Positions 30,124-45,493 of a stretch of 64,000 bases of DNA are shown piece after piece (the first letter of the stretch is position 1; every line of letters begins with the position of its first letter). The DNA is from Candidatus Fimihabitans intestinipullorum (GTDB lineage: Bacteria > Bacillota_I > Bacilli_A > RF39 > UBA660). The stretch lies in NCBI GenBank assembly GCA_018714965.1, contig DVML01000012.1:20830-84829 (forward strand). Direction: 5' to 3'. Under the pieces are notes generated by a model. It did no database searches. It worked only from the letters and a program-made list of their open reading frames with translations, and had not been told where the DNA came from. The position numbers and the translations under genes are program-made.

Positions 30124-30900
30124 ATGAAAAAAATAAAAGTACTCATGGTTGATGATAATGTAAATTTAGTAGGAATGGTAAAGGAGTATTTTAAAAATCA
30201 CGATGTGATATCGATAGATTATACTGCGAATGATGGATTAGAGGGTATGAAAGTGATCGAAGAAAAGAAAGATGAGATCGATGCAGTTATTTTGGATTTG
30301 ATCATGCCAAATAAAGATGGAATGTATGTGTTAGAAACGATGAAATCGCGAAAGATATTTCTTCCAGTGATTGTTGCAACAAGTTATAATGCGAGTGATG
30401 TAATTCGTGAGGTTTCAGAATATGGAGTAAATTATTTTATTTTGAAACCATTTGAATTATCCGATTTAGAAAAGAGAATACTAGATATCAATAAAAAGAA
30501 AAAGAAAGAATCAAAAAATATTGATTTCTATCATAATAATTTGCAAATATCGATTACTAAAATTTTACACGAACTGGGAATTCCATCTCATATTAAAGGA
30601 TATCAATATATTAGGGAAGCTATCGGAATTATCTATGAACATCCTGAGACGATCGGAGGAATTACGAAAGAATTATATCCTGAGCTTGCCGAAAAATTTG
30701 ACACGACTGTATCACGTGTAGAAAGGGCAATCCGCCATGCGATCGAAGTGAGTTGGAATCGAGCTAATTGGTCATTGATGGAAGAAATTTTTGGCAATAG
30801 TGTCGATATCGATAAGGCAAAGCCGACAAACTCGGAGTTTATCGTGACAATTGCAGATAAGTTAAAATTAGAATTTCATAAAGTGGGAAGTTTATCATAA
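30124..30900 (+). CDS. spo0A: Sporulation master regulator Spo0A
   Basis: Receiver domain ('VLMVDDN', '[14 protein letters not shown]') plus the diagnostic Spo0A C-terminal DNA-binding region '[16 protein letters not shown]...[19 protein letters not shown]'. Confidence 0.92.
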
Positions 30901-31053: not shown

Positions 31054-31571
31054 ATGATGACGTTTTTTGATATGTTGCCATCAGTTGTTTTATTTTTAGC
31101 TGGGTTTGGATTAATGTGTATTATCATATATGCACTTGTTAAAAATCGAAAATTAAAAAATATGGAGTTCCGGTTAAGGTTATAGTAAAAGATGTGAAAG
31201 AAAATTTACGAGAGTCTGAAGATCGAAAGGTAATTGCTGGATATTATATTACGTATCAGTTTACTTATCAAGGTGAGCAAAAGGAGATGTCGTATTTTAG
31301 ACAGGATGCTTTGAAAGTAGGAAGCGAATTACATGGAATTTATGTTCCGGATAAGAAGAACCCCTTTTTAAGCGTTGCGGGTTCTGGACATTATTTGGTA
31401 AAAGGTGGAGTTTTGTTAGGTGGTAGTTTTGCTCTGTATTTGATAGTCGTAGCTTTATTGTTGTTACAGGAAGATAGTACTGGTTTAATTGCACTTGTTT
31501 CTTTTATTTATATTCCTGTAATAGTGATTGCAATTGTAATTTATCAGTCTTTATTAGAAAAAATAAAGTGA
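31054..31571 (+). pseudogene. DUF3592-type two-TM membrane protein, reading frame broken at an A6 tract
   Basis: The short ORF 31054-31185 encodes only TM1 ('VVLFLAGFGLMCIIIYALVKNRKLK'). The adjacent frame continues '(K)KYGVPVKVIVKDVKEN...' into ORF 31194-31571, which ends with TM2. The frames meet in A6 at 31155-31160. Confidence 0.6.
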
Positions 31572-32171
31572 AAACTGATATTCCTTATCAAGAGATTATA
31601 GCCAATGATGGATCTAACATTTCAGGAAATTGGATAGAAGTAGAAGAAAAAGATGATCAGGATGATATGCAAGAAACAGAAAAAGAAAAGAAAAAAGGAA
31701 TCGTTGATTGGATCATGTCTCACTTACTTTCATTAATATTTGGATTTAATGGTATTGTACTTTTAGTGGTTGTAGCTATTGCTTTATATACAGATATATC
31801 ACTTACCTTAAAAGGAGAATATCAAGATGCTTTATGCAAAATTCAGTCTATATATACATACGAATCAGAAATTTCTGATGGAGAATATGAAGAGATGCAA
31901 GGAATTGTCTGTAAATATGAAATAGGTGAGAAGAGTTACACTAAAAGAATTGATACAGGAAAAAAAAGCGGAAGATGAAAAATATAGTGTAGGTGATACA
32001 GTTGATTTACGCTATCGAAAAGGGTATCCGGAAAATGCAGGAATCAAATCAAGTTTATTTGAAAATATCGTAGTAGTATTCGCTTGTTTGATGATAGGTA
32101 TTATATTCGTATTTATCGCAGTGCATAACTGGGATGACTCGAAGAAGAAAAAGTTTATGAAGGAGTATTAG
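31568..32171 (+). pseudogene. DUF3592-type two-TM membrane protein, reading frame broken at an A8 tract
   Basis: ORF 31568-31978 (acidic N-terminus, TM1, '...CKYEIGEKSYTKRIDTGKK') and ORF 31926-32171 ('AEDEKYSVGDTVDLRYRKGYPEN', TM2) join into one DUF3592-like architecture if one A is removed from A8 at 31960-31967. Confidence 0.6.
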
Positions 32172-32172
32172 C

Positions 32173-32586
32173 ATGTTTATATTATTAGGTTTAACGTTAG
32201 TATTATGTGGGATTAGTTTTATGATCGGAGGAATTCGCCAAAGAAAATTTTATTTGAATATTGCAAGAGGGAAGAATGAAAATTACGGGAAAACTGTAGG
32301 AAAAGCTGTTGGATATGTACATACAGCTGACTCGCATATTTATAATCCTATAACTTCACCGGTTGTTTTATATCAGGTAGATGGACAATCTTATCGAGGT
32401 AAAAATACCATATTAGAAACTGGATCTGGTCTTCCTAATGGTACGGAAATGTATGTGTGGTATGAAAAGAATCATCCAGAAAACTGCGTTTTAGAATCTG
32501 ATTTGGAAACTCCTAAGAAAAGAATTTGGTTTGGTGTTATATTTATGATGATGGGATGGATCGTGACATTTTGTCAATTTTTGTAA
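32173..32586 (+). CDS. DUF3592-type two-TM membrane protein (intact copy)
   Basis: TM1, then 'GKTVGKAVGYVH...VVLYQVDGQSYRGKN...GTEMYVWYEKNHPEN', then TM2. This is the typical DUF3592 layout. Confidence 0.65.
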   Translation: MFILLGLTLVLCGISFMIGGIRQRKFYLNIARGKNENYGKTVGKAVGYVHTADSHIYNPITSPVVLYQVDGQSYRGKNTILETGSGLPNGTEMYVWYEKNHPENCVLESDLETPKKRIWFGVIFMMMGWIVTFCQFL

Positions 32587-32737: not shown

Positions 32738-32767
32738 TTTACATGCAGGGTAGGAAAATGTTATAAT
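32738..32767 (+). promoter_or_regulatory. Putative promoter of the essC operon
   Basis: TTTACA, 18 nt, then TATAAT with an upstream TG (TGtTATAAT). Confidence 0.45.
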
Positions 32768-32792: not shown

Positions 32793-35700
32793 ATGGATAT
32801 TTATATTGCGGATGAAGAAAGATTATTAAAATATTCAATTTCAAACAAGATGGAAGAATTTGTTTCTTTTAACTGTAAATTAGGAAAAAAACATACAGAT
32901 TGTTTTATTACCATTGATGTACAAAATAAAAAGAGAGTTTTAACGAGTAACGGCACTTGTAAGATTATATCAAATCAGACATTCATTCCATCTGTTTCTT
33001 TAGAACCGTATCATTATTACGTTTTGCAGATTGAAGGAACAAAAGAACAAGTTATTTTATATTCGATTCCTACAATGCAAGAAGCATTTTATCCATTATC
33101 TTTAAATCAGTTACAACAAATTAAGATTGGCAATAGTAAAAATTGTGAAATATGCTATCAGACTCCATTGCTGGAAGCGGAAAGTGCAACGATTATATTA
33201 AAGGAAAAACAGTGGTATTTTGTGCCTAGTGCTCAGACAAAGATAAAAATGTTCAAAAATCGATATATGATTCAAAGAACGACAGAATTGAACATAGGAG
33301 ATATGATTTTCATTGGCGGGTTAAAATTGATTTGGATGGGAGATTTTATCGAAATTAATAATCCAAATAATTCTGTAGGAGTTTCTAAGCTTTCTGCATA
33401 TAGTTTTCCATTAACGACCGAAACGTATCAGCCAGCTACTGAGGAAGAAGAGGCTGCTGTTTCTTTATATCAAGAGAGTGATTATTTTTATCATATTCCA
33501 AGGATACGTGAGGTATTAGAAACTTCTAAGATTAAAATTGATCCACCCACATCTCCTGTCGAAAAAGAAGAACTTCCATGGTGGTTAACAATAGGATCAT
33601 CTATAACGATGTCTGCAGCAGCATTTTTGATGGCATATAATGTTGGTTATGGATTATATACTGGAACGCGGACATTTTGGCAGGCGTTTCCTCAAATTGT
33701 TATGTGTATAGCAATGTTGGTTGGTAGTTTGCTTTTGCCGAGAATTGCAAATCACTATCAGAAGAAAAGAAATCATAAAAAAGAAATGTTGCGAAAGACA
33801 AAATATACGGAGTATTTACAAGGGAAAGAAAAAGAAATTTGTCAAATTATGAAACAACACATGCAAATAATGAATGATAACATTCCTTCGTTAAAAGAAT
33901 GTCTAGATACTATTGCATATCGAAAGAAAAATTTTTGGAGTAGAGTTGTTTCTGACGATGACTTTTTAAATGTTCGATTAGGACTTGGGGATGTTGAACC
34001 GGTCTTTACAATCGAAGCTCCTGAGGAAAAATTTACGATAGACGAAGATGAATTACTACAAAAAGTATATACTATGATTGCTCAATACAAAAAAATGACA
34101 AACGTTCCAATTGCTATCAATTTAGCGGAAAAAAGAGTTGTATCGTTTGTTTGTGAGCAAACGTCTAGATATCAATATATTCAAAATTACATCATGCAAT
34201 TAGTTACGTTGCATAGCCCGGAGGATTTAAAAATTGTAATTTTTACAAATAAAGAGCGAGCATATCATTGGGATTTTATGAAGTATATGCCTCATTGTTT
34301 TAATGAAAGCAAATCAATGCGTTTTTTTGCAACCGATATAGAAGAGGCCAAAGATATCTCTAATGAATTAATTTCTATATTTAAAAATCAACAAGAGATC
34401 ATAAAAAAATCGCAAACAACAGAAGACGGAAAAGAAATTGATCAACGAAAAGGGTATCGTAATTTCTCTACGTATTATTTAATTATCAATGATGATTATC
34501 AAACTGGAAAGAATATACCAATTATTACTAACATTTTAGAATCGGATGTTAATTTTGGATTTTCATTATTTGTTATCAGTGATACTATGAAGAACTTACC
34601 TTCTACTTGTCAAACTTTTATTGAAGCAGGTGCAAAAGATGGTGCATTGATTGAGCGTGATATTACAACAAGTGGACAAATTATATATCATAATGAGCCT
34701 TTGCTTCAATATGATATATATAAATATACAAGAAAGTTAGCTAGTATACCAATTGCTTTGAAAGAAGGAGTAAATACTTTACCGAAAAGCATCTCTTTTA
34801 TGGAAATGCTTGGAATATCTAAGGTAGAACAACTTAACGTGTCTACAAATTGGGAGACAAATGATCCTGTTTTATCGTTGGCAGCACCGATTGGGGTTCA
34901 TGAAAGTGGAGAATTGTTTAAGTTAAATTTGCATGAAAAGAGTCATGGACCACATGGATTGGTTGCGGGAAGTACAGGTAGTGGTAAATCAGAATTCATT
35001 ATTACATATATTTTATCTATGGCAATCAATTATCATCCTTATGAAGTTCAGTTTGTATTGATCGATTATAAAGGTGGAGGGCTTACTGGAGCATTTGAGA
35101 ATAAAGAAACAGGTTTAGTTCTTCCACATTTGGCTGGAACGATTACAAATTTAGATATAAGTGAAATGAATCGAACTTTAGTATCGATTCAAAGTGAATT
35201 AAAACGTCGTCAAAGAATATTTAATGAAGTAAGAGATAATTTAGGAGAGAGCACAATTGATATTTATAAGTATCAAAGGTTGTATCGAGAAGGTGTTGTA
35301 AAAGTTCCTATGGCACATTTATTCATTATTAGTGATGAGTTTGCAGAATTAAAAAGTCAACAGCCAGAATTTATGTCTCAATTGATTAGTATTTCACGTA
35401 TCGGAAGATCTTTAGGCGTTCATTTGATCTTGGCTACACAAAAACCAAGTGGTGTGGTTAATGATCAAATATGGAGTAATTCAAAATTTAAGGTATGCTT
35501 AAAGGTTCAAAGCCGTGCTGATAGTATGGAAATGCTAAAAAGACCAGAGGCGGCAAGTATTAAAGAAACTGGAAGATTTTATTTACAAGTCGGATATGAT
35601 GATTTGTTTATGATTGGACAGTCTGCTTGGTCTGGTGCAAAATATATTCCATCGGAACATGCCGTGAAAAAAATGGATGATGCGATCGATGTGATTGGAA

Positions 35701-37406
35701 ATATAGGAGATGTGATTCGTTCATTTAAACCAAAAGTAAAAGTAGAAAATACAAATAACAATGGAGACCAATTGACAAATATTGTGAGATATTTGTATGA
35801 GTTGGGACAGAAAAACCATATAGTTACAAACAAATTATGGTTAGATGCAATTCCGGATACAATTTATGTGTCAAATTTAAAAAAGAAATATCAGTATCAG
35901 CCAACCGCATATCAAATTACACCTGTGATAGGGGAATACGATAATCCGGAAGAGCAGATGCAAGGAATTGTGAATTTAAATTTAAGCGATAATGGAAATA
36001 CTGCCATTTTTGGTCAAACTGGAAGTGGAAAAGAAAACTTAATTTCAACGATCTTATGGTCAACAATGATAGAACATACACCACAAGAAGTCCAAATTTA
36101 TATTATGGATTTTGGTTCTGAAACACTTCGTGCGTTTCAAGCGATGCCTCATGTTGGGGATGTTATGACGATTGATGAGATCGATAAGATTGTAAATGCA
36201 GTAGAGATGCTTGAAAATTTAGTTGAAGAACGTAAAGGGTTATTTGCAGAATATGGTGGATCTTATCAACAATATTGCGAATTAAGTGGAAAGAAGTTAC
36301 CTTTGGTTTTAACAGTTATCAATGGGTATGACACGTTTATGGAGACTTATGGAAAAGTTACAGAACAAATGCAAAATTTATATCGTGATGGTAGCAAATA
36401 TGGAGTTGTATTTATTGTTGTAGCAGTAGCTACAAATGCAATTCGTAGTAGAATGTTACAAAATTTTTCAAACGTTATTTGTTTGCAAATTCCAAACACG
36501 GGAGAGTATCGTACTTTATTGAATGCTCCACGCAACTTAGTTCCTGCTTCTATTTTTGGACGAGGGTTGATTAAATTACACGGACATGCTTATGAATTTC
36601 AAACAGCTCTTTTTGCAAAACATGGTGAGATGATTCCGGTGATAAGAAAAGCTGCTGAAAAATTATCTAGTGCTTATCAAGTGAAGGTGCCTAAAGTACC
36701 AATGGTTCCAGAAGTAGTAAATTATAAAATGTTACTTTCTTCACTAGATACTCTTGCTCATGTTCCGTTGGGATATGATGTATATGACAAAAAATCTTAT
36801 TGTTATGACTTTACAAATCATTTCATTACTCCTATTATCGCTGCATCTATGGATGAAGATAAAATGGAATTTGTTTATGCCTTAGCGCTTATGATGCAAC
36901 AAATAAAAAGTACAACAGTAGAAGTGATTGATTGTGTAGAAGCATTTGAAAAAGAATTACCAGGTATTACTTGTATCAAAGAAAAATTTGATGAAGCATT
37001 AGTACAAATAAATAACCGCTGCATTCAAGAGAAAGATACAGATCAGCATAAAGTATACCTCATTCTTGGTGTCGGTGCCTTGAAGAGTAAATTGAGTGAA
37101 GCAGGAAATGAACTTTGGAATCATTTTATGGAGATTATGAAAGAATATAAAAATGTTCATTTTGTGATTGTCGATACTTATGTTTCATATCGTACATTAC
37201 AATTTGAACCATGGTATCATTTGATAGATTCAAGTTGTGGGATTTGGCTTGGATTGGGTATTGGAAATCAAGTGGCATTTAATATAACAGAGCTTACTAT
37301 GGAAGATAGAAAAAAAGATTTTCCAAATATTGGTTTTTCAATTTTAAAAGGGAAATATACACTTATCAAGTGCATGGTGTCGAAAGAGGTGGATAATGAA
37401 AAATAA
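32793..37406 (+). CDS. essC: Type VII secretion system ATPase EssC/YukB (FtsK/SpoIIIE family, T7SSb type)
   Basis: 1537 aa. The N-terminal ~230 aa is a soluble FHA-like region. Two TM helices follow ('WWLTIGSSITMSAAAFLMAY', 'FPQIVMCIAMLVGSLLLPRI'), then repeated FtsK-like ATPase domains. P-loops are 'GLVAGSTGSGKSEFI' and 'IFGQTGSGKENLI', with Walker B 'LFIISDEFAELK'. The last domain has no recognisable P-loop. Confidence 0.9.
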   Translation: MDIYIADEERLLKYSISNKMEEFVSFNCKLGKKHTDCFITIDVQNKKRVLTSNGTCKIISNQTFIPSVSLEPYHYYVLQIEGTKEQVILYSIPTMQEAFYPLSLNQLQQIKIGNSKNCEICYQTPLLEAESATIILKEKQWYFVPSAQTKIKMFKNRYMIQRTTELNIGDMIFIGGLKLIWMGDFIEINNPNNSVGVSKLSAYSFPLTTETYQPATEEEEAAVSLYQESDYFYHIPRIREVLETSKIKIDPPTSPVEKEELPWWLTIGSSITMSAAAFLMAYNVGYGLYTGTRTFWQAFPQIVMCIAMLVGSLLLPRIANHYQKKRNHKKEMLRKTKYTEYLQGKEKEICQIMKQHMQIMNDNIPSLKECLDTIAYRKKNFWSRVVSDDDFLNVRLGLGDVEPVFTIEAPEEKFTIDEDELLQKVYTMIAQYKKMTNVPIAINLAEKRVVSFVCEQTSRYQYIQNYIMQLVTLHSPEDLKIVIFTNKERAYHWDFMKYMPHCFNESKSMRFFATDIEEAKDISNELISIFKNQQEIIKKSQTTEDGKEIDQRKGYRNFSTYYLIINDDYQTGKNIPIITNILESDVNFGFSLFVISDTMKNLPSTCQTFIEAGAKDGALIERDITTSGQIIYHNEPLLQYDIYKYTRKLASIPIALKEGVNTLPKSISFMEMLGISKVEQLNVSTNWETNDPVLSLAAPIGVHESGELFKLNLHEKSHGPHGLVAGSTGSGKSEFIITYILSMAINYHPYEVQFVLIDYKGGGLTGAFENKETGLVLPHLAGTITNLDISEMNRTLVSIQSELKRRQRIFNEVRDNLGESTIDIYKYQRLYREGVVKVPMAHLFIISDEFAELKSQQPEFMSQLISISRIGRSLGVHLILATQKPSGVVNDQIWSNSKFKVCLKVQSRADSMEMLKRPEAASIKETGRFYLQVGYDDLFMIGQSAWSGAKYIPSEHAVKKMDDAIDVIGNIGDVIRSFKPKVKVENTNNNGDQLTNIVRYLYELGQKNHIVTNKLWLDAIPDTIYVSNLKKKYQYQPTAYQITPVIGEYDNPEEQMQGIVNLNLSDNGNTAIFGQTGSGKENLISTILWSTMIEHTPQEVQIYIMDFGSETLRAFQAMPHVGDVMTIDEIDKIVNAVEMLENLVEERKGLFAEYGGSYQQYCELSGKKLPLVLTVINGYDTFMETYGKVTEQMQNLYRDGSKYGVVFIVVAVATNAIRSRMLQNFSNVICLQIPNTGEYRTLLNAPRNLVPASIFGRGLIKLHGHAYEFQTALFAKHGEMIPVIRKAAEKLSSAYQVKVPKVPMVPEVVNYKMLLSSLDTLAHVPLGYDVYDKKSYCYDFTNHFITPIIAASMDEDKMEFVYALALMMQQIKSTTVEVIDCVEAFEKELPGITCIKEKFDEALVQINNRCIQEKDTDQHKVYLILGVGALKSKLSEAGNELWNHFMEIMKEYKNVHFVIVDTYVSYRTLQFEPWYHLIDSSCGIWLGLGIGNQVAFNITELTMEDRKKDFPNIGFSILKGKYTLIKCMVSKEVDNEK

Positions 37407-37650
37407 GGTGTTAGTTGAATTAGTAATTCCAGAAATTGACGAAGTTTATAATCTGTATCTTCCTGCACAAAAAAAGATCGGAAGTATTATGGAACTATTG
37501 CGGAAAGTTGTTTTCGAATTATCCAATGGTTTATATCAAGCAAAGGCTCAAGCTGCACTTTATAGTGGAGTTTCCGGAGAACGTTATAGTATGAATCAAT
37601 TCTTATATCAAACAGATATTCGAAATGGGTCGCGTATTATCTTATTGTGA
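37396..37650 (+). CDS. esaB: YukD/EsaB-like ubiquitin-fold T7SS protein
   Basis: 84 aa. The pattern 'VYNLYLPAQKKIGSIMELL...LYQTDIRNGSRIILL' parallels EsaB/YukD ('..YDL.vP...pi..Li ... i.dGD.L.LL'). Its start overlaps the end of essC. Confidence 0.7.
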   Translation: MKNKVLVELVIPEIDEVYNLYLPAQKKIGSIMELLRKVVFELSNGLYQAKAQAALYSGVSGERYSMNQFLYQTDIRNGSRIILL

Positions 37651-37661
37651 GAGGTGAACAA

Positions 37662-39278
37662 ATGAATCTGAAACAATTATTACATCATCATAGAATTAAA
37701 ATTTATGGTGCGATTGCAATTCTAGGACTAGGCTCTATTACTTTATATCATATGCCGAGAGAAGAAAATGTATCAGCACCTAAAACTATTGAAACAGAAG
37801 AACCGGCTATACCAGAGAAGCAGAATGTTGCTCCTGAGCTAGTTTTGGATTCTTCAGTAAAAACATTAACGGAAGAACAAAAAATATTGTTACAACAAAA
37901 TATATCATTGAGTAATAATCAGTATCTTAATCAGAAGATTCGTAACTATAAGGTTGATTATCCTTATAGTGAATACTTTGGAATCGATCAAGCGTTACAA
38001 GCTTATCATAGCCTTCCAGAGTATGTTTCTGAACATGGAACAAATGTTATAAAGAATGGCGTTGTAGATGAAAGTGCACTTTACGAATGCGTTCTTGCAA
38101 ATCAGGAACAATTAAAAGAAAATCAAACACGATTAGACGATACGACGTTGAGACAGATATGTAAAATTATTACAGATACGATAAATACAACTATCATGAA
38201 TGAAGGGGATTATGATTTAGGAGATTTAAATTACAAATTATCTCATCTTATCGTAGCAGAATATAAAGAATTTAGTTATGCATATTATAATCCAGCTCAA
38301 AATACATTAGGAATAAACAAAACATCTGTTTATAATTTGGCTTCTTCTGAACCATTTGATGATGTATTAAAACAAGTGATTGCTCATGAGACAGAACATT
38401 TATTGCAGGCTGGAAGTGCTTTAGAAAGTCAAGAGCGAAACTATGTGATGAGATTCGGACCTTGCGTAGAGTTTGGTAATTTAAAAGTAAATTCACTTTA
38501 TTGGAATTGGTTTATAGAGGGATCTGCAGAATCTCTAGCGTTAAAAACAACAAATCGAGAAGATACTTTAACTTATCCACAAGAAGTAAAAGGACTGGAA
38601 ATAGTTCAATTAGCGAATAACCTATCTCAAAATGGATCTTTAGAAAAATTATCGTTACAGTCGAATTTAGAAAATGTATATTCATATTTTCAGTGTAATA
38701 CAGATGAAGACAAAAAAGAGATTTTGGAATTCATGTATGCTATGAATTTAGTAATATCAGATAGTTATACAAGTTCTTCTGAAGATTTTTATACAGTATA
38801 TAAAGAAGCAAATAATGGAAATATGATTGACCGAGCGTCATATAAGACAGATTTGAAAGAAAGCATTGCGATGACATTAACTAAACAGTTCTATGGAAAC
38901 TTTGTAAATTACGCGTCTAGTGGAACTTACAATTTAGAACAGTTAATGCATATGATGTCAATATATGAAGATGAATTAAGTAGATTACTTTGGTACAGTA
39001 ATTCATCTTACCGAGATTCTTATATTGATTTCTTTGAGTTTTATACACAAATACAGTCACTAGTATTTGAACAGATCGCTCAACAGTTAGGTCGCAGTCA
39101 AGAAGAAATTGTAAATTTATACATTACATATCATCTCGCAAATGAGAAGGGCGATTTATCTTTTTTACCTAGTGAACAACAACAATTTTATGAATATATC
39201 GCATCAACTCGTCAAAATGATCATAAAAATGCGATTATAGATGTCTATCAACAATTGTCAAGTTTTAGAAAAAAATAG
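37662..39278 (+). CDS. N-terminally membrane-anchored protein with an HExxH zinc-metallopeptidase-like motif; family unknown
   Basis: Basic N-terminus 'HHHRIK', one TM helix ('IYGAIAILGLGSITLY'), then a ~500 aa domain containing 'VIAHETEHLLQAG' and, about 40 aa later, 'FIEGSAESL', a possible third Zn ligand. It directly abuts esaB. Confidence 0.55.
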   Translation: MNLKQLLHHHRIKIYGAIAILGLGSITLYHMPREENVSAPKTIETEEPAIPEKQNVAPELVLDSSVKTLTEEQKILLQQNISLSNNQYLNQKIRNYKVDYPYSEYFGIDQALQAYHSLPEYVSEHGTNVIKNGVVDESALYECVLANQEQLKENQTRLDDTTLRQICKIITDTINTTIMNEGDYDLGDLNYKLSHLIVAEYKEFSYAYYNPAQNTLGINKTSVYNLASSEPFDDVLKQVIAHETEHLLQAGSALESQERNYVMRFGPCVEFGNLKVNSLYWNWFIEGSAESLALKTTNREDTLTYPQEVKGLEIVQLANNLSQNGSLEKLSLQSNLENVYSYFQCNTDEDKKEILEFMYAMNLVISDSYTSSSEDFYTVYKEANNGNMIDRASYKTDLKESIAMTLTKQFYGNFVNYASSGTYNLEQLMHMMSIYEDELSRLLWYSNSSYRDSYIDFFEFYTQIQSLVFEQIAQQLGRSQEEIVNLYITYHLANEKGDLSFLPSEQQQFYEYIASTRQNDHKNAIIDVYQQLSSFRKK

Positions 39279-39298
39279 CAATATGTAATAGAAATAGC

Positions 39299-39327
39299 TT
39301 GAGAAATGAAAATAAATATGGTATAAC
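39299..39327 (+). promoter_or_regulatory. Possible internal promoter ahead of the small-protein genes
   Basis: TTGAGA, 17 nt, then TGgTATAAC (extended -10). Confidence 0.4.
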
Positions 39328-39361
39328 GATAGTAAGCAGTATAGTAAAGTAGGTGACTTAT

Positions 39362-39685
39362 ATGAAAGTGTCTGCTGTTGGAGTAAATGAAGATGGATTG
39401 AAACGCTTGATTTTAGAATTAGACGAATATCAAGAAAAGATTCAAGCTGTTTATCGTTCTTTAGAAGACTGTCAAATGGAAGCCTTAAAAGGACTAAATG
39501 ATGATGCAGCAAGTGCATTTTTAAAGAAATACCGAGAAGTAGGTCATTGTTTTGAAATACTGAAGTCTAATCTTCAGACATACAAGGATGATTTTCAAAC
39601 GGTAATTAGGAGATATCAGCAGACGTCCCATGATAGTGTCGATCTATTTGAAGAGGCAAAGAGAAAAATTCCAGATAATGGTTAA
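39362..39685 (+). CDS. Small helical protein, WXG100-superfamily-like but lacking W-x-G (candidate T7SS substrate or partner)
   Basis: 107 aa, predicted helix-turn-helix. N-terminal 'VSAVGVNEDGLKRLILELDEY', a motif shared with the next two ORFs. 'LNDDAASAF' sits at the position of the W-x-G turn. Confidence 0.5.
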   Translation: MKVSAVGVNEDGLKRLILELDEYQEKIQAVYRSLEDCQMEALKGLNDDAASAFLKKYREVGHCFEILKSNLQTYKDDFQTVIRRYQQTSHDSVDLFEEAKRKIPDNG

Positions 39686-39700
39686 TAAGGAGGAGAGTAT

Positions 39701-40033
39701 ATGGGATTATTTAGTACAGGTGCACAAAATGTTGGAATTGATAGCATGACAATTGGTGTGAGCCAGCAAGGTATGGAGGAATATCGTGAAGCGTTAAGAA
39801 TGAGTTTGCTAGAAGACACGAAGTCAAAATTACAGGATGTAGGTGCAATCCAAACGGCAATTGATGCTGGTTGGCAAGGAGTTGCTCGAGATCGCTTTTT
39901 TCAAGATTTTGATCAACAAATTGAAAAAATAATACAGGATTTGCAAAAAGAATATGAGGATTTAGATCATCGTTTGGAAGAGTTAGAAGAAAATTATTTT
40001 GCTCAAGATAACGATATGGTCGCAGGAAATTAG
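39701..40033 (+). CDS. WXG100-like protein
   Basis: 110 aa. 'AIDAGWQGVARDRFFQDF' is the W-x-G motif with its following aromatic. The C-terminal 'NYFAQDND' fits Y-x-x-x-D. AAGGAGGAG RBS. Confidence 0.6.
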   Translation: MGLFSTGAQNVGIDSMTIGVSQQGMEEYREALRMSLLEDTKSKLQDVGAIQTAIDAGWQGVARDRFFQDFDQQIEKIIQDLQKEYEDLDHRLEELEENYFAQDNDMVAGN

Positions 40034-40042
40034 GAGGAAATT

Positions 40043-40513
40043 ATGGCAAATTGGATGAATGGTGTGTCAGAATCGACATTTAATGCAAAGAGTTTTTCAG
40101 ACAGTCAGATTTCAGACCGTGAAGGTACACGTGAAGCTTCCAATGTTAGACATGGATGGTTTGGCAACGGTAGAGCTTATAGTGTTGTCGGAATTGATGC
40201 TAATAGAATTGATGGAATGAGAAGTGCAATCCGTGATTATGTGCAAGCAATTGAAGGACATTTAGATGGGATTGAACCACTTGCGAATGCTAATAATGCA
40301 TATAAGAGTGAAGAAGTACAAAGAGCTGTACAAGAATATGTTCAAAAAGTAAAAGATTACTGTAAAAATTTAACGAGTCAGTTATTAGCTTTTAGTGATA
40401 AACTTGGGGATGTGAAGTCTTCTTGGGAAAGAGCTACAAGCGAAATGTCTTCTACTATCGGTGGTGCTTCTGGTTCATTTGATGCTGGTACAAAATATAC
40501 AGAAAATCAATAG
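40043..40513 (+). CDS. Small helical protein related to the two preceding ORFs, with an N-terminal extension
   Basis: 156 aa. 'YSVVGIDANRIDGMRSAIRDYVQAIEGHL' aligns with 'NVGIDSMTIGVSQQGMEEYREAL' and 'VSAVGVNEDGLKRLILELDEY'. AGGAGGA RBS. Confidence 0.5.
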   Translation: MANWMNGVSESTFNAKSFSDSQISDREGTREASNVRHGWFGNGRAYSVVGIDANRIDGMRSAIRDYVQAIEGHLDGIEPLANANNAYKSEEVQRAVQEYVQKVKDYCKNLTSQLLAFSDKLGDVKSSWERATSEMSSTIGGASGSFDAGTKYTENQ

Positions 40514-40519
40514 TGATGT

Positions 40520-40825
40520 ATGGAAGATTTGACTTCACTTTATATTAGAAAAAATTCATATGATAATATGAGATCTCAGGTTTTAGGAGTAATCCGAGAA
40601 CTGGAAAATAGTATTAGAATATGCGAAGATACAGTTACAAATATTAGAACAAATTATATGATAGAAGGAGAATCTTTGCATAGTCAATATTTAGATGATT
40701 GTAAGGAACAACTTAACCTTCAGTTAGTATCATTACGCAATACAATATTACCAACAATTGATCAAAACTTATCAAATTTGAAAAATAAGATTAGGATTGA
40801 AGAAGAAAGAATTCTTGCGTCATGA
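40520..40825 (+). CDS. Small helical protein (101 aa), unknown
   Basis: ORF within the T7SS gene string. Coiled-coil-like composition and a weak RBS. Confidence 0.45.
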   Translation: MEDLTSLYIRKNSYDNMRSQVLGVIRELENSIRICEDTVTNIRTNYMIEGESLHSQYLDDCKEQLNLQLVSLRNTILPTIDQNLSNLKNKIRIEEERILAS

Positions 40826-40871
40826 GATGTTCAATATAATTCTTTCTTCTTTTTGCTAGGAGGGGAATGGT

Positions 40872-41156
40872 TTGACTTATAATGTAGATACAAATAAAAT
40901 TCGTGAATGTGGGAATGATATTATTCGACTCTCAACTGAATTAAATGAATTGTTTACATCTTTATTTGAACGATTGATTTTGATGCCTACGAATACAAAA
41001 GAGTGGGTTGGGGAGAGTGCAAATGCATTTGCGGAAAGTGTAAAGCAAGATAAGCTACAATATGATCGTTTAAAAGAAGCAATCTATAGTGAAGGAAAAT
41101 TATTAGTGGAATATGCGGATCAAATAGAAGCTCAAGTACGTAAAATGGAGGAATAA
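40872..41156 (+). CDS. WXG100 (ESAT-6/EsxA-like) family protein
   Basis: 94 aa, TTG start after AGGAGGGG. The central 'KEWVGESANAFAESV' W-x-G motif lies between two predicted helices. Confidence 0.65.
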   Translation: MTYNVDTNKIRECGNDIIRLSTELNELFTSLFERLILMPTNTKEWVGESANAFAESVKQDKLQYDRLKEAIYSEGKLLVEYADQIEAQVRKMEE

Positions 41157-41159
41157 TAT

Positions 41160-41471
41160 ATGGCTAAAATTTATTATCAATTGGATCGAATTGAAAGCTC
41201 TGTTTTGCCTTTGTTCAATCGTTTAGAGTCATCTTTGAATCAAGCTTCTTCCAAGGCACATCAAACTGTGGTACCATATGATTTTGTACAACGAGGGATA
41301 TGGTCTAATATGATTGACACTATAGATCAAATAAAAGGAAATGTTATAACTTTACACAATAAAATAAAACGTTCACAACAGATTGTAAAAGAATTAAATG
41401 AAAATTTTATATCTGATGTTAATGTGGCAATGATACCAGAAATAGATGCTCGCGAGAGGCATTTATCATAG
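41160..41471 (+). CDS. Small helical protein (103 aa), unknown
   Basis: ORF with GGAGGA RBS, tightly packed after the WXG100 gene. Confidence 0.45.
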   Translation: MAKIYYQLDRIESSVLPLFNRLESSLNQASSKAHQTVVPYDFVQRGIWSNMIDTIDQIKGNVITLHNKIKRSQQIVKELNENFISDVNVAMIPEIDARERHLS

Positions 41472-41487
41472 ATGGAAGGAGAGTAAT

Positions 41488-42243
41488 ATGGGGGAAACAA
41501 TGTTACCGATTGGAAGTGTTTGTCGAATAAAGGATGATCAAATTGTCATGATTGTAGGATATTTTCCTATCAATGTTGAAAGTTCCAATTATATGTATGA
41601 TTATGTTGCCGAAAAATATCCGGAAGGAACACTGACCAATCATCAAGTAATTCATTTTAATAGACAAGATGTAAAAGAAGTTTTACATAAAGGGTATATG
41701 GATGATTCATGTGCGAAATTTATGGAACGAGTTACAAAAATGTCTATGATGTTTAAAGAAAAGAAAAATGAGCTGATCGACAAAGATTCTAATATAGTAC
41801 AAGAGAAAAATACAACTTCTATTTCAAATGTATATCAGTTTGATGAAAGTGGAAGAGTTATTGAGGATGAGATACAAAATCCTGTGAAGGAACAAACAAA
41901 AATAGTTGATATGAATATCGAGGATAAATCTCAAATGCACGAGGAATATCAAAGTGGAGCATATCAGTTTGGTAAGGATGGAAAAGTATTGATGGAAGCA
42001 ACTACAAATTTGGAGTCGAAACCAATGACGCTTTATCAATTTGATGAAAATGGAATTGTAGTTACTGACCGTAGTGCAACACAAAAAGAGGAGCTACCTA
42101 AGTTAGAAAATGTATCGAATCCTTTTGCTTTAAATAAGTCAAAAGAAAATACTGAAGTAGAACATGACACTAAAAAATGGCCGATTTTTAAATCGCTTAA
42201 ATTTGATCAAAACGGAGTAGTATTAGCTGCAGAAGAATATTAA
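41488..42243 (+). CDS. DUF4176-domain protein with a C-terminal array of four 'YQFDxxGxV' repeats
   Basis: The N-terminal 'MLPIGSVCRIKDDQIVMIVGYFPIN...YDYVAEKYPEG' is DUF4176-like, a family commonly found in T7SSb loci. The repeats are 'VYQFDESGRVIEDE', 'AYQFGKDGKVLMEA', 'LYQFDENGIVVTDR' and 'LKFDQNGVVLAAEE'. Confidence 0.65.
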   Translation: MGETMLPIGSVCRIKDDQIVMIVGYFPINVESSNYMYDYVAEKYPEGTLTNHQVIHFNRQDVKEVLHKGYMDDSCAKFMERVTKMSMMFKEKKNELIDKDSNIVQEKNTTSISNVYQFDESGRVIEDEIQNPVKEQTKIVDMNIEDKSQMHEEYQSGAYQFGKDGKVLMEATTNLESKPMTLYQFDENGIVVTDRSATQKEELPKLENVSNPFALNKSKENTEVEHDTKKWPIFKSLKFDQNGVVLAAEEY

Positions 42244-42262: not shown

Positions 42263-42293
42263 AAGCTTATTTGTTATAAATGAGCTTTTTTTG
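42263..42293 (+). terminator. Rho-independent terminator ending the T7SS gene string
   Basis: aagcttattt-gttat-aaatgagctt hairpin followed by T7. Confidence 0.75.
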
Positions 42294-42319: not shown

Positions 42320-42393
42320 AATGATTATAGTAGTATTAGGGTATATGTGACTTCTAGCATATGTACGAAATTTGTAGAAAAAGGAGTATTCTT

Positions 42394-43992
42394 ATGGGTG
42401 AGAAGAGAAAAAAGGATGAAAAAGTGACGCCAGTTAACTTAGAGACGTCAGCAATTCAAGAGGAGAGATTAGAAGTATTAGAACAACATGAGGAGATAGT
42501 ACAAGAAGATGAAAAAGAAACAAAGGTAATGGAAAATAACACTGTTTCTGAAACTACATCAAACGAGCCAAAGGAACAAAATAAAAAGGTTGGTGACTTT
42601 GGAAAACATCAGAAGAAATTTATTTGGATTACGATATTAGGGGCAATTTGTATCGCTCTTGGAATTTTTACTTATTATTTCCATTTTGATAAGAAAGCGA
42701 TGTTTGTAAGAGCGACCACGCAAATGCAAGATCGTTTGGAGTATTTGTATCAACCACTTTTAAAACACACTTCAGAGCCAAGAAAATCATATACGGTAAG
42801 AGGGAAGGCAAATCTTACTATCAAATCTGATGTTTTTGATATGATGGCATCACAGGATCCTACCTATGCAATGTATCAAACGTTAATTTCTAATTTAAAT
42901 AAGATGGAGCACCAATATACTTACCAAGTGGATCAAGACAAAGAAGAAATGGTATTAGACTGGAATACAACATTAAATCAGTCTGAGTTTTTCAACATGA
43001 CATTTGTAAATCAAAATAAAAAAGGATATGTATTACTAAAAGGTATTTATGATTATTATCTCGATACAGGGGAGTTTAATTTATTTGAGACGATGAATCA
43101 ATCAACAGATGTTGAGGATCAAAAATACTTATATAACTTTATCGTAGATGCAATAAAAAAACATTTAAAATCAGATTATTTTATTAAGACAAAAACGGAA
43201 GTCACAATCGATGGCAAAAAGCAAAATGTAGATAAGATTTCATTGGTGTTAGATTCCCATAATACGAGTGAAATTATGGCAGCTGTGATCGAAGATATGA
43301 AAGCTGATAAAAAAGCTAACGATATTATGAATTCGCTTTATCCAGAGTTTAAAGCGTATGAACCAAAAATTCAACAAACGAAAGCAAAAGAAACGAAAAT
43401 TTTAGTATCTGCATATACGAAAGGATTGATGTCTTCCGCAGTACAATACGATCTTTCTATTGTAGAATGGGTGACAGATTATGATGATTTTGATTATAAT
43501 AAGGCCCAATATAATTTGAAAGAGCAAATTATGACATTACGCTATACTGTTGGAAAAAATGATGTTATTCGCATGTTGAACGATGAAAAGGAAACGTTCG
43601 TAGCAGAAGTGGTAAAAAATGAAGATGGATTTACGGCCGTTATGAAGGATGGAAACAATCGAGATTTAGGTAATCTACAGTTAGTTACGAGCGATAAAGG
43701 AATTACTTATACATTCTCGTTAGAGGACGAATCTACTTTATTAAAGATTGTGTTTGATAATCAATATGAAAGTAAAGATCAAGCAACATCAAGTTTCTCT
43801 TTTGAACTTTCTAATCAAGGTACTACTTTGTTAAGTATCAATGCTACAAGCTCAGCAACGGTTCAGGATGGAACAAATATGAATATCAATGTTGATAATG
43901 CCGTTTCGGTAGATGCACTTACAAAAGAACAAGAACAACAAATTCAACAAAATTTAACGAATTTGATGATGCGTTTATTTACAACACAATAA
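42394..43992 (+). CDS. Single-pass membrane protein with an acidic cytoplasmic N-terminus and a ~430 aa extracytoplasmic domain; unknown family
   Basis: AAAGGAG RBS before ATG 42394. TM helix 'FIWITILGAICIALGIFTYYF'. No recognisable motifs. Confidence 0.55.
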   Translation: MGEKRKKDEKVTPVNLETSAIQEERLEVLEQHEEIVQEDEKETKVMENNTVSETTSNEPKEQNKKVGDFGKHQKKFIWITILGAICIALGIFTYYFHFDKKAMFVRATTQMQDRLEYLYQPLLKHTSEPRKSYTVRGKANLTIKSDVFDMMASQDPTYAMYQTLISNLNKMEHQYTYQVDQDKEEMVLDWNTTLNQSEFFNMTFVNQNKKGYVLLKGIYDYYLDTGEFNLFETMNQSTDVEDQKYLYNFIVDAIKKHLKSDYFIKTKTEVTIDGKKQNVDKISLVLDSHNTSEIMAAVIEDMKADKKANDIMNSLYPEFKAYEPKIQQTKAKETKILVSAYTKGLMSSAVQYDLSIVEWVTDYDDFDYNKAQYNLKEQIMTLRYTVGKNDVIRMLNDEKETFVAEVVKNEDGFTAVMKDGNNRDLGNLQLVTSDKGITYTFSLEDESTLLKIVFDNQYESKDQATSSFSFELSNQGTTLLSINATSSATVQDGTNMNINVDNAVSVDALTKEQEQQIQQNLTNLMMRLFTTQ

Positions 43993-44013
43993 AGGACGTA
44001 TGTCCTTTTTTTG
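43991..44013 (+). terminator. Rho-independent terminator
   Basis: aaggac-gtat-gtcctt hairpin followed by T7. Confidence 0.8.
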
Positions 44014-44015
44014 AT

Positions 44016-44113
44016 GTTACAAAATCGTCATATAAAAATAAATTACTTGAAATGTATCATAAAAAAGGATAAAATGTTAAAAGAGAATAGAGTAATTTGC
44101 AATATTCTTTTTG
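44016..44113 (+). promoter_or_regulatory. Promoter plus leader module (copy B of the sequence shared with 25621-25748)
   Basis: GTTACAA-N4-GTCATATAAA-N4-AATTACTTGAAA, 17 nt, then TAAAAT. The leader 'agagaatagagtaatttgcaatattcttttt' follows (agaata/tattct hairpin plus Ts). Confidence 0.5.
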
Positions 44114-44134
44114 TATGAAATTGAGTGATGTTGT

Positions 44135-45493
44135 ATGATAGAAAAGAAGAAGATATTTTATCGAGTCATATTTATCGTGAATATATTATTTATTTTATTT
44201 TTGGTAGGTTATTATGGATATCGTTTGATTCATTATTATCAATTAGAACATAAAAAAGAAAGTGAACTTGTTACTTTAAATGATTATCTGACACAACCTC
44301 GCAATATTGTTGTAGAGGGGGACGGACTATATCAGGATGAGAAGGAATATTATTATGCCGGAAAGAACGTATCAAATTATGTATCGTATTCAGGATATTT
44401 ATTTCGCGTTATTAAGATTCGTGAAGATGGTGCGATCGTAATGACGACAGATGATACGTATACATTGTTATCCTGGGGAGAAGATAGTGCGTATGATACT
44501 TCTTATGCACGGAAATGGTTAGCTAATATCTCTGAAGTTCCACAATCTGGAGTTTTTGAAAAAACGTTATGGCAACCAGAACAATATTTGGTTACGACAG
44601 AGGTTTGTACAGATACGATTGCGAATGTGAAAAAGCTAAGCTGTAAAAAGAAGATTGATAGTGATTATGTTGGACTATTTAGTATGGAAGATTATCAAAG
44701 AAGCGGAGGACTTTCTGGTTTCTTAAATAACGGAACGAACTTTTGGACATCGAATGCATCTAAAACAGGAAACTGGTTTATTTCTAATAAGGGAGGACTC
44801 AATGAGAATGAAGTTGAAAATCAATCTCGTATGTATGGGGTTCGTCCTACGATTACATTAAAAGCATCTCTTCCTGTATTAGGTGGAAATGGAAGTAAAG
44901 AACAACCATATATAATAGAAAATCATCCGGTTGCTTCTTTGGCATCTGCATACGTTGGTGGTTATGTTCGCTATAGTGGTCAGATGTTTCGCATCATTGG
45001 AAAAAATAATAATGAGGTTCGTCTTGCTTTAAATGGTGTGATTACGACGGATCAAGTTCCTGTGGAACGTATTTTTTCACGTAAGACAAATCAATATAAT
45101 CCGAAAGAGTATCAATCTGTTGCTCAATATTTAAATCAAACTTATTATCGCACTTTACAACATCCTGAATATCTTGTTGAAGGTGCATGGAATATAGGAA
45201 ACTACGGAGATATCAATTATGATTATGCGACAACAAGTCAACATACAGTCAACGCTAAAATTGGAATGTTACAAGTAGGAGACTTGTTCGTAGAAGATGT
45301 TCCGAATGTATTTTTATTGAATGGATCTGGCGATGAAGAAATGATTTATACTATAACAGAACAGGGAAGTTTATATTTAGATGAAATTAAGACGAAAAAA
45401 CAGATTCGACCTGTATTAAATATGCTTCCAACTGTAGCAGTATTATCTGGAACCGGAACAGAACAAGATCCTTATGTGGTAGGTGAAGCATGA
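44135..45493 (+). CDS. Membrane-anchored exported protein with two DUF6273-like modules
   Basis: N-terminal TM helix. Two modules end in 'MYGVRPTITLK' and 'KKQIRPVLNM', and '...NFWTSNAS...' resembles the DUF6273 pattern (WW/W..S ... VRPA). Confidence 0.55.
   Translation: MIEKKKIFYRVIFIVNILFILFLVGYYGYRLIHYYQLEHKKESELVTLNDYLTQPRNIVVEGDGLYQDEKEYYYAGKNVSNYVSYSGYLFRVIKIREDGAIVMTTDDTYTLLSWGEDSAYDTSYARKWLANISEVPQSGVFEKTLWQPEQYLVTTEVCTDTIANVKKLSCKKKIDSDYVGLFSMEDYQRSGGLSGFLNNGTNFWTSNASKTGNWFISNKGGLNENEVENQSRMYGVRPTITLKASLPVLGGNGSKEQPYIIENHPVASLASAYVGGYVRYSGQMFRIIGKNNNEVRLALNGVITTDQVPVERIFSRKTNQYNPKEYQSVAQYLNQTYYRTLQHPEYLVEGAWNIGNYGDINYDYATTSQHTVNAKIGMLQVGDLFVEDVPNVFLLNGSGDEEMIYTITEQGSLYLDEIKTKKQIRPVLNMLPTVAVLSGTGTEQDPYVVGEA

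Follow-up and report, generated by a model that had tools for sequence, protein, structure and literature searches.

The window analysed here is a stretch of 64,000 nucleotides (nt) from Candidatus Fimihabitans intestinipullorum (contig DVML01000012.1). In its ORF (open reading frame) listing, positions 32793 to 42243 of the forward strand form a single operon of ten intact, tightly packed or overlapping ORFs, which opens with a gene for EssC, the membrane ATPase of type VII secretion systems (T7SS). On balance, we think it probable that this region is a self-contained, compact T7SS operon with an undescribed layout, belonging to uncultured, spore-forming Bacilli of low G+C content. This reading is favoured because the same gene set recurs as a unit between unrelated, mostly housekeeping genes. 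A preliminary description of the region had recognised a T7SSb-like locus with EssC and YukD/EsaB, which profile, homologue and fold matches confirmed, and had left three options for the lack of the usual membrane partners, namely genes elsewhere in the genome, replacement by unrelated membrane proteins, or a distinct minimal EssC-based apparatus. The last option fits best, since the gene set travels as a unit, and we lean towards it with some reserve.

EssC and the ubiquitin-like protein

The operon opens, as the preliminary description had it, with an EssC of 1537 amino acids (aa). The protein scored 977 bits against the NCBIfam equivalog TIGR03928 (T7_EssCb_Firm; cutoff 778) and matched FtsK_SpoIIIE (PF01580) twice (168 bits), and an EssC/EccC-type ATPase of the FtsK/SpoIIIE family is therefore present. 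Among solved structures it comes closest to YukB of Bacillus subtilis, from the T7SSb core complex (9qks, 403 bits). Analysis of the nucleotide-binding motifs showed a canonical Walker A (GSTGSGKS) at residue 726 of the first ATPase domain, while that of the second domain, GQTGSGKE at residues 1074-1081 (window 36012-36035), has a Glu at the position of the Mg-binding Ser/Thr. The two clear P-loops described before are thus found at 726 and 1074, the second ending in GK-E instead of GK-S/T. In the third and last domain, which had been called degenerate, the motif check found no Walker A. A degenerate last ATPase domain is normal for EssC. The GK-E form is retained in all sampled EssC relatives with at least 43% identity, whereas farther homologues (among P0016-P0068) show GK-T, GK-M or no motif, and we regard it as characteristic of the group, not as damage, because all of those closer relatives keep it.

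Two other features of EssC were only partly borne out. Of the two transmembrane helices described, the hydropathy scan called one (residues 298-316); the second, of lower hydrophobicity (around 263-288), was recognised by eye only. The FHA-like N-terminus (residues 110-175) gave an E-value of 0.021 with PF00498, short of the cutoff, and residues 1-230 matched no solved chain by sequence, FHA domains included, but many relatives at about 50% identity have a recorded PF00498 match.

EssC and the YukD-type protein encoded by the second gene are co-translated; the start of the 84-aa gene lies 11 nt before the essC stop, an overlap already noted in the preliminary description. Neither singly nor as a profile of 3 or 50 sequences did this protein give a direct match to Pfam, NCBIfam or PDB sequences. 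Its YukD/EsaB identity, which had been proposed from the sequence and proved right, is drawn from its homologues and from fold similarity. An exhaustive HMMER search returned 309 relatives, nearly all of 82-90 aa, and ten of the 50 sampled homologues matched YukD (PF08817; best 1.8e-8). The AlphaFold model, with a mean predicted local distance difference test score (pLDDT) of 93.4, is a beta-grasp. In Foldseek it matched the ESX-5 complex best, at the ubiquitin-like domain of EccD5 (E 1.7e-6, template-modelling score 0.72-0.80), and EccD1 was also matched. The C-terminus (...RIILL) has no Gly-Gly, and the protein is a beta-grasp protein of the YukD/EsaB/EccD type.

Relatives and gene neighbourhoods

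The EssC search of genome contigs returned two loci. At the cluster level we found at least 75 EssC relatives with 35-53% identity, almost all of them from metagenomes. The neighbourhood survey of EssC homologues that the preliminary description had proposed covered eleven genomic settings with flanks of 10 kb on either side, and revealed that the gene set recurs as a unit among different, mostly housekeeping neighbours (Table 1). Four other settings, where EssC is 47-51% identical, share all ten genes in unchanged order. In relatives with 39-45% identity the EssC and ubiquitin-like genes are kept, and the cassette of small genes that follows is shorter or rearranged. Gene homology was assigned by BLAST for L003-L007, and for L014 by matching gene sizes and motifs. 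No other membrane-protein gene is conserved in the flanks across the loci.

Table 1. EssC loci related to the operon, with EssC identity, gene content and neighbouring genes. B, ubiquitin-like gene; HExxH, gene of the zincin-like protein; T4SS, type IV secretion system.
Locus	EssC identity	Gene content	Neighbours
L003/L004	50%	same ten genes, same order; L004 with a second DUF4176 gene	purA upstream, tex/hrcA downstream
L005/L006	51%	same ten genes plus a second DUF4176 gene	recG upstream, tex/hrcA downstream
L007	47%	same ten genes, same order	between veg and spoVG
L014	50%	same ten genes, same order	after polC
L001	44%	EssC and B, then an inverted block of HExxH and six small genes	DUF975/CmpB membrane-protein gene, aldehyde dehydrogenase
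L010	43%	EssC, B, six small genes and DUF4176; no HExxH; dockerin-bearing s3	murJ/PAP2, rpiB/spoIID
L008	39%	EssC, B and two WXG-like genes only	argS, rpoE/prfA
L011	39%	rearranged	T4SS pilin genes
L015	45%	rearranged	conjugation genes
L002	42%	contig ends soon after B	

The next EssC homologues, with 32-33% identity (L009, L012 and L013), stand with a true Pfam YukD and with kinases, PP2C, FHA or a giant Ig-like protein. Bit scores over EssC residues 302-971 were 664-962 within the group, 433-569 for these kinase-type loci, 403 for YukB and 129-204 for actinobacterial EccC, a ranking which suggests that the EssC proteins of the loci studied here form a group of their own.

Some relatives have neighbours of a different kind. 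A TraC-like gene, a VirB4-like ATPase, an M23/lysozyme hydrolase and a coupling protein stand beside the EssC module at L015:19091-24554, and four T4SS_pilin genes do so at L011:6449-9806; integrative conjugative elements may carry the module in some genomes. Directly upstream of essC, L002 (5884-9274) encodes two proteins with NlpC/P60 and Big_2 domains. Also upstream of essC, L003 (8542-9894) and L005 (8120-9310) encode homologous bitopic proteins of 450 and 396 aa that are 47.5% identical and have no Pfam match. Such upstream envelope genes may parallel the EssH wall hydrolase of Staphylococcus aureus by analogy. As candidates for a missing partner, the upstream ORFs of L003 (450 aa), L005 (396 and 191 aa) and L008 (289 aa) were rejected, as they had no Pfam match and only the L003 and L005 proteins are related. 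We also dropped a link to sporulation suggested by spo0A, spoVG, spoIID and spoIIR as neighbours, since the neighbours vary between genomes.

Search for the usual membrane partners

Profile scans of every ORF between 31 and 48 kb detected no YukC/EssB (PF10140), EssA, EsaA/YueB or LXG at E<=1. The flanks of nine relatives, for which precomputed Pfam matches were used, and selected flank ORFs of L001 and L002 likewise gave no YukC, EssA or EsaA match. The lack of recognisable EssA, EssB/YukC and EsaA/YueB nearby, claimed in the preliminary description, thus held for this interval and for the relatives' searched flanks, and so did that of an LXG-type toxin; no LXG toxin with an immunity gene was found at the locus. 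Among the proteins of the operon, none other than EssC reaches the hydropathy threshold for a transmembrane segment. Elsewhere in the window we scanned 14 ORFs of EssB or EsaA size, of which 12 encode housekeeping proteins (NusA, IF-2, TyrRS, ThiI, PGK, a GT4 glycosyltransferase, a class II tRNA synthetase, an ABC/FtsX transporter, acetate kinase, NAPRTase, EzrA and a uridine-kinase-like protein); the remaining ones encode a SpaA/TED surface protein (2-1249) and a 447-aa polytopic protein (1929-3272).

Replacement of the partners by unrelated membrane proteins, for which the gene at 42394-43992, a DUF3592 trio and the gene at 37662-39278 had been put forward, was largely rejected. The DUF3592 genes have no counterpart beside EssC in any relative, and only one of the supposed trio (32173-32586) matches DUF3592 at all. 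The ORF at 42361-43992 likewise has no such counterpart and no Pfam or PDB match, and for 44135-45493 no counterpart was found near EssC in any relative. The third candidate, at 37662-39278, is the HExxH protein treated below; it is Sec-type, usually lipobox-bearing and extracytoplasmic, and is present in six of the eleven settings. Its topology, with almost nothing on the cytoplasmic side, and its fold also rule it out as a divergent EssB pseudokinase or a polytopic EsaA.

The six-gene cassette and the DUF4176 protein

Toward its 3' end the operon contains a cassette of six small ORFs, s1 to s6, encoding proteins of 94-156 aa. These are the six helical proteins of the preliminary description, two of them with W-x-G, which we located in s2 (GWQG) and s5 (EWVG). 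The s2 protein matches WXG100 (PF06013) with 28.8 bits against a threshold of 27.3, and TIGR03930 with an E-value of 1.5e-7; a small helical WXG100 protein is thus encoded together with the ATPase. Its C-terminal [YW]xxxD/E motif is kept across seven loci and corresponds to the YxxxD/E export motif of T7SSa substrates. The WxG of s5 is conserved in all seven aligned homologues, and s1 holds a constant position in every relative that has the six-gene cassette. Profile comparison with hhalign linked s1 to s3 (95%), s1 to s2 (76%), s1 to s5 (69%) and s2 to s3 (68%), and left s4 and s6 unlinked.

The s3 family comprises 65 clusters, nearly all of 150-175 aa, with no toxin domain and no Pfam domain except a dockerin on long members. 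This C-terminal type I dockerin occurs on two of them, P0264 and a 347-aa protein of L010 (L010:15619-16662; Dockerin_1, 28.5 bits), and the long members also have a Pro/Thr-rich linker. Because dockerin is an extracellular module, s3 probably ends up outside the cell.

In some species, the dockerin-bearing s3 suggests a T7SS cargo that is docked to a cohesin-bearing surface scaffold.

Directly after the cassette, and thus beside Lap-like genes, lies the gene of a large DUF4176 protein, the fusion reported in the preliminary description; it combines PF13780 (70.8 bits) with a C-terminal extension. In the translation we read four 'YQFDxxGxV' repeats of the YD/Rhs-like kind in this extension (residues ~125-265; 41800-42243), and the L007 homologue has a weak TEN_YD-shell match on record. 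A DUF4176 homologue follows the cassette in L003-L007, L010 and L014. Large DUF4176 proteins act as chaperones for the disordered regions of T7SSb toxins (PMC12478183). The locus showed no cognate LXG toxin whose disordered middle domain could be the client of this protein, and our guess would be that the disordered N-terminus of s3 takes that place.

The HExxH protein

The third gene (ORF 37647-39278, 543 aa) probably starts at the ATG at 37662, since the 99%-identical homologue P0001 has 538 aa. As the preliminary description had it, a membrane-anchored HExxH protein follows the YukD-like gene: a short basic N-terminus and one short, moderately hydrophobic signal segment precede a large C-terminal body, and the HExxH is invariant. 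A word-indexed search of 5.8 billion proteins returned homologues in 15 clusters, all metagenomic and none with a Pfam domain, and more distant members are present in related EssC loci. The protein itself has no Pfam match. Alignments A2/A3 of 13 sequences showed H247, E248, H251, Q254, E291, A294 and E295 to be invariant, and the motifs are also kept in L003, L005, L007 and L014. The protein therefore carries, both invariant, a gluzincin-type HExxH on a helix and a downstream Glu. In most homologues a Cys follows the hydrophobic segment (LASGC, FPGC, MTGC, FVSGC, LSSGC, LTAC), the pattern of a lipoprotein signal peptide, and most of these relatives are thus predicted lipoproteins. The protein of the window, P0002, P0005 and the L014 homologue have no such Cys and would be signal-anchored.

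The AlphaFold model (pLDDT 82, predicted template-modelling score 0.83) is disordered over residues 1-70 and then shows a three-strand sheet, helix 237-254 with the HExxH, and a long helical C-terminal half. Foldseek found no PDB match at E<=0.001, and its weak top matches are the gluzincins BepA (E 0.099), an M48-like peptidase (3c37) and LTA4 hydrolase. We read this protein as a putative extracytoplasmic, membrane-tethered, zincin-like member of an unclassified family. Six of the eleven genomic settings conserve its gene, and L008, L010, L011 and L015 lack it.

Operon boundaries and surrounding genes

The features of the operon are collected in Table 2. The G+C content is about 32% across the region, with no compositional break. 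Promoter-like sites are no more frequent in the region than in shuffled sequence (76 versus 73.5), so that the site 5' of essC is a candidate only. A perfect sigma-70 consensus (TTGACA, 16 nt, TATAAT) also lies antisense inside the 3' end of the HExxH gene, at 39261-39234 on the reverse strand, and is probably due to chance in AT-rich DNA, because such sites are no commoner than in shuffled sequence. At the 3' end, the terminator described as strong is plausible, as a hairpin with U7 is present, but its strength was overstated: the stem reaches -10 kcal/mol (z = -2.2), and the G+C-based terminator scan did not call it.

Table 2. Features of the T7SS operon and its boundaries, in window positions. 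s1 to s6, genes of the small-protein cassette.
Feature	Position	Strand	Basis
Promoter-like candidate	32738..32767	+	TTTACA, 18 nt, TG-TATAAT; 11/12 matches, extended -10; 25 nt 5' of essC
EssC/TsxC, membrane FtsK/SpoIIIE-type secretion ATPase, 1537 aa	32793..37406	+	TIGR03928 and PF01580
YukD/EsaB/EccD-type ubiquitin-like protein (TsxB), 84 aa	37396..37650	+	homologue PF08817 matches, AlphaFold, Foldseek
Putative extracytoplasmic, signal-anchored zincin-like protein, HExxHxxQ and E-x-S-A-E motifs	37662..39278	+	alignments, AlphaFold
s1, small helical, WXG100-superfamily-like, without WxG, 110 aa	39353..39685	+	cassette position, hhalign
s2, WXG100 protein (EsxA/TsxA candidate), 110 aa	39701..40033	+	GWQG, C-terminal YFAQD (YxxxD)
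s3, candidate exported cargo, 156 aa	40043..40513	+	disordered-looking Ser/Thr-rich N-terminus, then helical hairpin
s4, small helical protein, 101 aa	40520..40825	+	conserved cassette position; no family match
s5, second WxG protein (EWVG), 94 aa	40872..41156	+	weak T7SS_signal (E 0.003) and WXG100 matches
s6, small helical protein, 103 aa	41160..41471	+	conserved cassette position; no family match
Large DUF4176 (Ltc-type chaperone family) protein, 265 aa	41446..42243	+	PF13780 70.8 bits, residues 19-90
AT-rich hairpin and U7, terminator candidate	42263..42292	+	11-bp hairpin 42263-42285, -10 kcal/mol, z = -2.2

Upstream of the operon lies spo0A (30124-30900), with a terminator of its own. 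Between spo0A and essC, four overlapping ORFs for small membrane proteins of 125, 136, 81 and 137 aa occupy 31194-32586 on the forward strand, and the last of them gave the DUF3592 match (30.4 bits). We place these ORFs outside the secretion unit because none has a counterpart beside EssC in any relative. On the 3' side, three envelope-protein genes (42361-46506, forward strand) show no conservation alongside the T7SS. The first encodes the 543-aa bitopic protein of 42361-43992, with about 86 cytoplasmic residues; the others encode a 452-aa N-terminally anchored protein and a 338-aa NAGPA phosphodiester glycosidase (133.8 bits). At the left edge of the window, the surface-protein gene at 2-1249 has thioester (TED) and SpaA prealbumin-like domains, and the 447-aa polytopic membrane protein at 1929-3272 (forward strand) has no Pfam or family match.

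Alternative explanations

The EssC passes the T7SSb equivalog model and keeps its FHA-like N-terminus, as it would in a canonical T7SSb that had been split, with EssB/YukC, EssA and EsaA/YueB encoded at another genomic locus and the operon reduced to genes for ATPase, ubiquitin-like protein and substrates. The normal role of YukD, which in B. subtilis bridges YukB to YukC (bioRxiv 10.1101/2025.01.24.634720), points the same way. We regard a split system as unlikely, since in characterised T7SSb the genes for EssB/YukC, EssA and EsaA/YueB are clustered with essC (PMC11217815), while none of the 10-kb flanks searched in the eleven settings held a Pfam match to YukC, EssA or EsaA. The operon is also found at varied chromosomal sites, as expected of a self-sufficient unit, and by bit score its EssC is farther from YukB than from the kinase-type variants, which are themselves without EssB.

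The absence of EssA, EssB and EsaA is in itself unsurprising, because Garrett, Higginson and Palmer (2024) described eight Bacillota T7SS layouts (T7SSc to T7SSj) that lack these proteins and retain the ATPase, WXG100 and usually the ubiquitin-like protein (PMC11217815). The preliminary description of a stripped-down T7SSb was thus correct about the partners absent at the locus and overstated how odd this is. The operon might then be a member of a described type, such as the simple T7SSg or the clostridial T7SSf. Components A, B and C are indeed shared, essC is sometimes the first gene of such loci (PMC11217815), and T7SSg is similarly small; our separation relies on component lists and not on a tree with reference sequences of types c to j. 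The accessories of these types are the kinase TsxD, the PPM phosphatase TsxF, the FHA/DUF6382 protein TsxJ, the Ig-like TsxI, the vWA protein TscE, the EspG-like TsxG, the DUF5050 propeller TsgL and the AAA+ protein TsfV (PMC11217815). The Pfam scans of 31-48 kb detected no Pkinase, PP2C phosphatase, separate FHA protein, DUF6382, vWA, DUF5050 or AAA+ at E<=1 and thus none of the components that define each type, the EspG-like fold not having been searched for. TsgC has no FHA domains, whereas relatives of this EssC have them, and the paper mentions no lipoprotein, metalloprotease or peptidase component (PMC11217815). The published survey was based on RefSeq (PMC11217815), and the group described here comes almost entirely from metagenomes. 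Membership in one of these types therefore appears quite improbable. Least probable of all, and to our minds hardly credible, is a decaying, non-functional remnant that has lost its membrane partners. The usual partners were indeed not found, the second Walker A is non-canonical and the third ATPase domain is degenerate, but none of the ten ORFs is interrupted, they lie close together or overlap, and a promoter-like site precedes them. These ORFs are also kept intact in genomes as far apart as 40-50% amino-acid identity, with HExxH, WxG and YxxxD motifs preserved, and the GK-E, conserved in the closer relatives, is no random lesion.

Several points weigh against a self-contained system. The FHA-like N-terminal region of EssC binds EssB in T7SSb, and its retention here suggests that some partner still exists. 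YukD acts in B. subtilis by bridging YukB and YukC, and no YukC was found at this locus. Genes for EssB, EssA, EsaA or other partners could lie elsewhere in the genome. The close members of the group share GK-E in the second ATPase domain, and ATP may therefore not be hydrolysed there. The zincin assignment of the HExxH protein is drawn from its motif, Foldseek giving no significant match, and secretion, the substrate roles and the chaperone clients are all predictions.

Proposed mechanism and significance

If the operon is a self-contained T7SS, EssC multimers would form the membrane translocase, organised by the ubiquitin-like protein as YukD organises YukB assembly (bioRxiv 10.1101/2025.01.24.634720). 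The WXG100 protein s2, with its C-terminal YxxxD, would be the EsxA-like, signal-bearing substrate, and s1, s4, s5 and s6 would serve as partner or targeting hairpins. Hairpin complexes built from s1 to s6 would be exported, with s3 as the cargo-like member that probably reaches the cell exterior, and the DUF4176 protein would act in the cytoplasm as a chaperone of a disordered stretch in a substrate. On the outer face of the membrane, the zincin-like lipoprotein might trim exported substrates or open the cell wall, in a role, though not by family, analogous to that of MycP in T7SSa or EssH in S. aureus. A partner of the EssB, EssA or EsaA type would not be needed, or none would be dedicated to the system. 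A bolder version, which we offer tentatively and consider possible but doubtful, is that EssC and the YukD-like protein make a complete translocon with no other dedicated membrane component genome-wide, that L008 is a natural four-gene minimal system, and that the cassette is exported as a surface-displayed helical assembly, and not as toxins, which the zincin-like lipoprotein processes or anchors.

The operon bears on the question of which membrane components the transport of folded helical substrates really needs, and of whether EssC/EccC lines the channel. Naturally pared down, conserved across diverged genomes and reduced to four genes in the smallest relatives, it offers a small candidate set for the sufficiency of EssC and a ubiquitin-like protein. 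To the published list of T7SS types, a to j, it adds a layout from uncultured gut-type Bacilli that was missed by RefSeq-based surveys, as these lineages are missing from RefSeq. The locus also points to an unclassified family of zincin-like lipoproteins and to a fixed six-member WXG100-like cassette without a toxin, which hints at a role other than interbacterial killing.

Comparison with known systems

The operon shares with T7SSb an EssC that passes TIGR03928, a discrete YukD/EsaB-type protein, a WXG100 protein and a protein of the DUF4176 chaperone family. In characterised T7SSb, such as Ess of S. aureus and Yuk/Yue of B. subtilis, the WXG100 gene usually comes first, whereas here essC does. 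The operon also differs in having no EssB/YukC, EssA or EsaA/YueB at the locus or in the searched flanks of its relatives, no LXG toxin or immunity genes, and instead a fixed cassette of six small helical genes, often with the zincin-like lipoprotein.

Like types c to j, it is a Bacillota T7SS built around TsxA, TsxB and TsxC without EssA, EssB or EsaA, with small Lap/WXG100-like genes beside candidate substrates, and its nearest EssC relatives outside the clade sit in kinase/PP2C-type loci that resemble types e and j (L009, L012, L013). Of these types, the simple T7SSg and the group e, f and j, whose loci bear FHA, come nearest. The HExxH lipoprotein and the six-gene cassette belong to no described type. 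The component list matches none of types c to j. A literature search for 'T7SSk' or any account of this layout found none.

For the HExxH protein, the suggested parallels are MycP, the mycosin of T7SSa, and EssH of S. aureus T7SSb, which are extracytoplasmic hydrolases encoded with or recruited by a T7SS and membrane-tethered or wall-associated. EssH is described as a cell-wall hydrolase serving this system (PMC13059805). MycP is a subtilisin-like serine protease and EssH a peptidoglycan hydrolase, whereas the protein described here combines a zincin motif with an otherwise unmatched helical fold and is absent from some relatives.

The cassette most resembles the T7SSb export complexes of LXG toxins, Lap targeting factors and Ltc (DUF4176) proteins (PMC12478183, PMC10801868), in which small helical hairpins are likewise encoded beside a longer helical protein and a large DUF4176 protein, and one partner bears a C-terminal aromatic-xxx-acidic motif. 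It differs from them in that no LXG match or toxin/immunity pair accompanies it, the putative cargo s3 measures about 160 aa in nearly all of its 65 clusters, and five partner proteins are found where those complexes have two or three.

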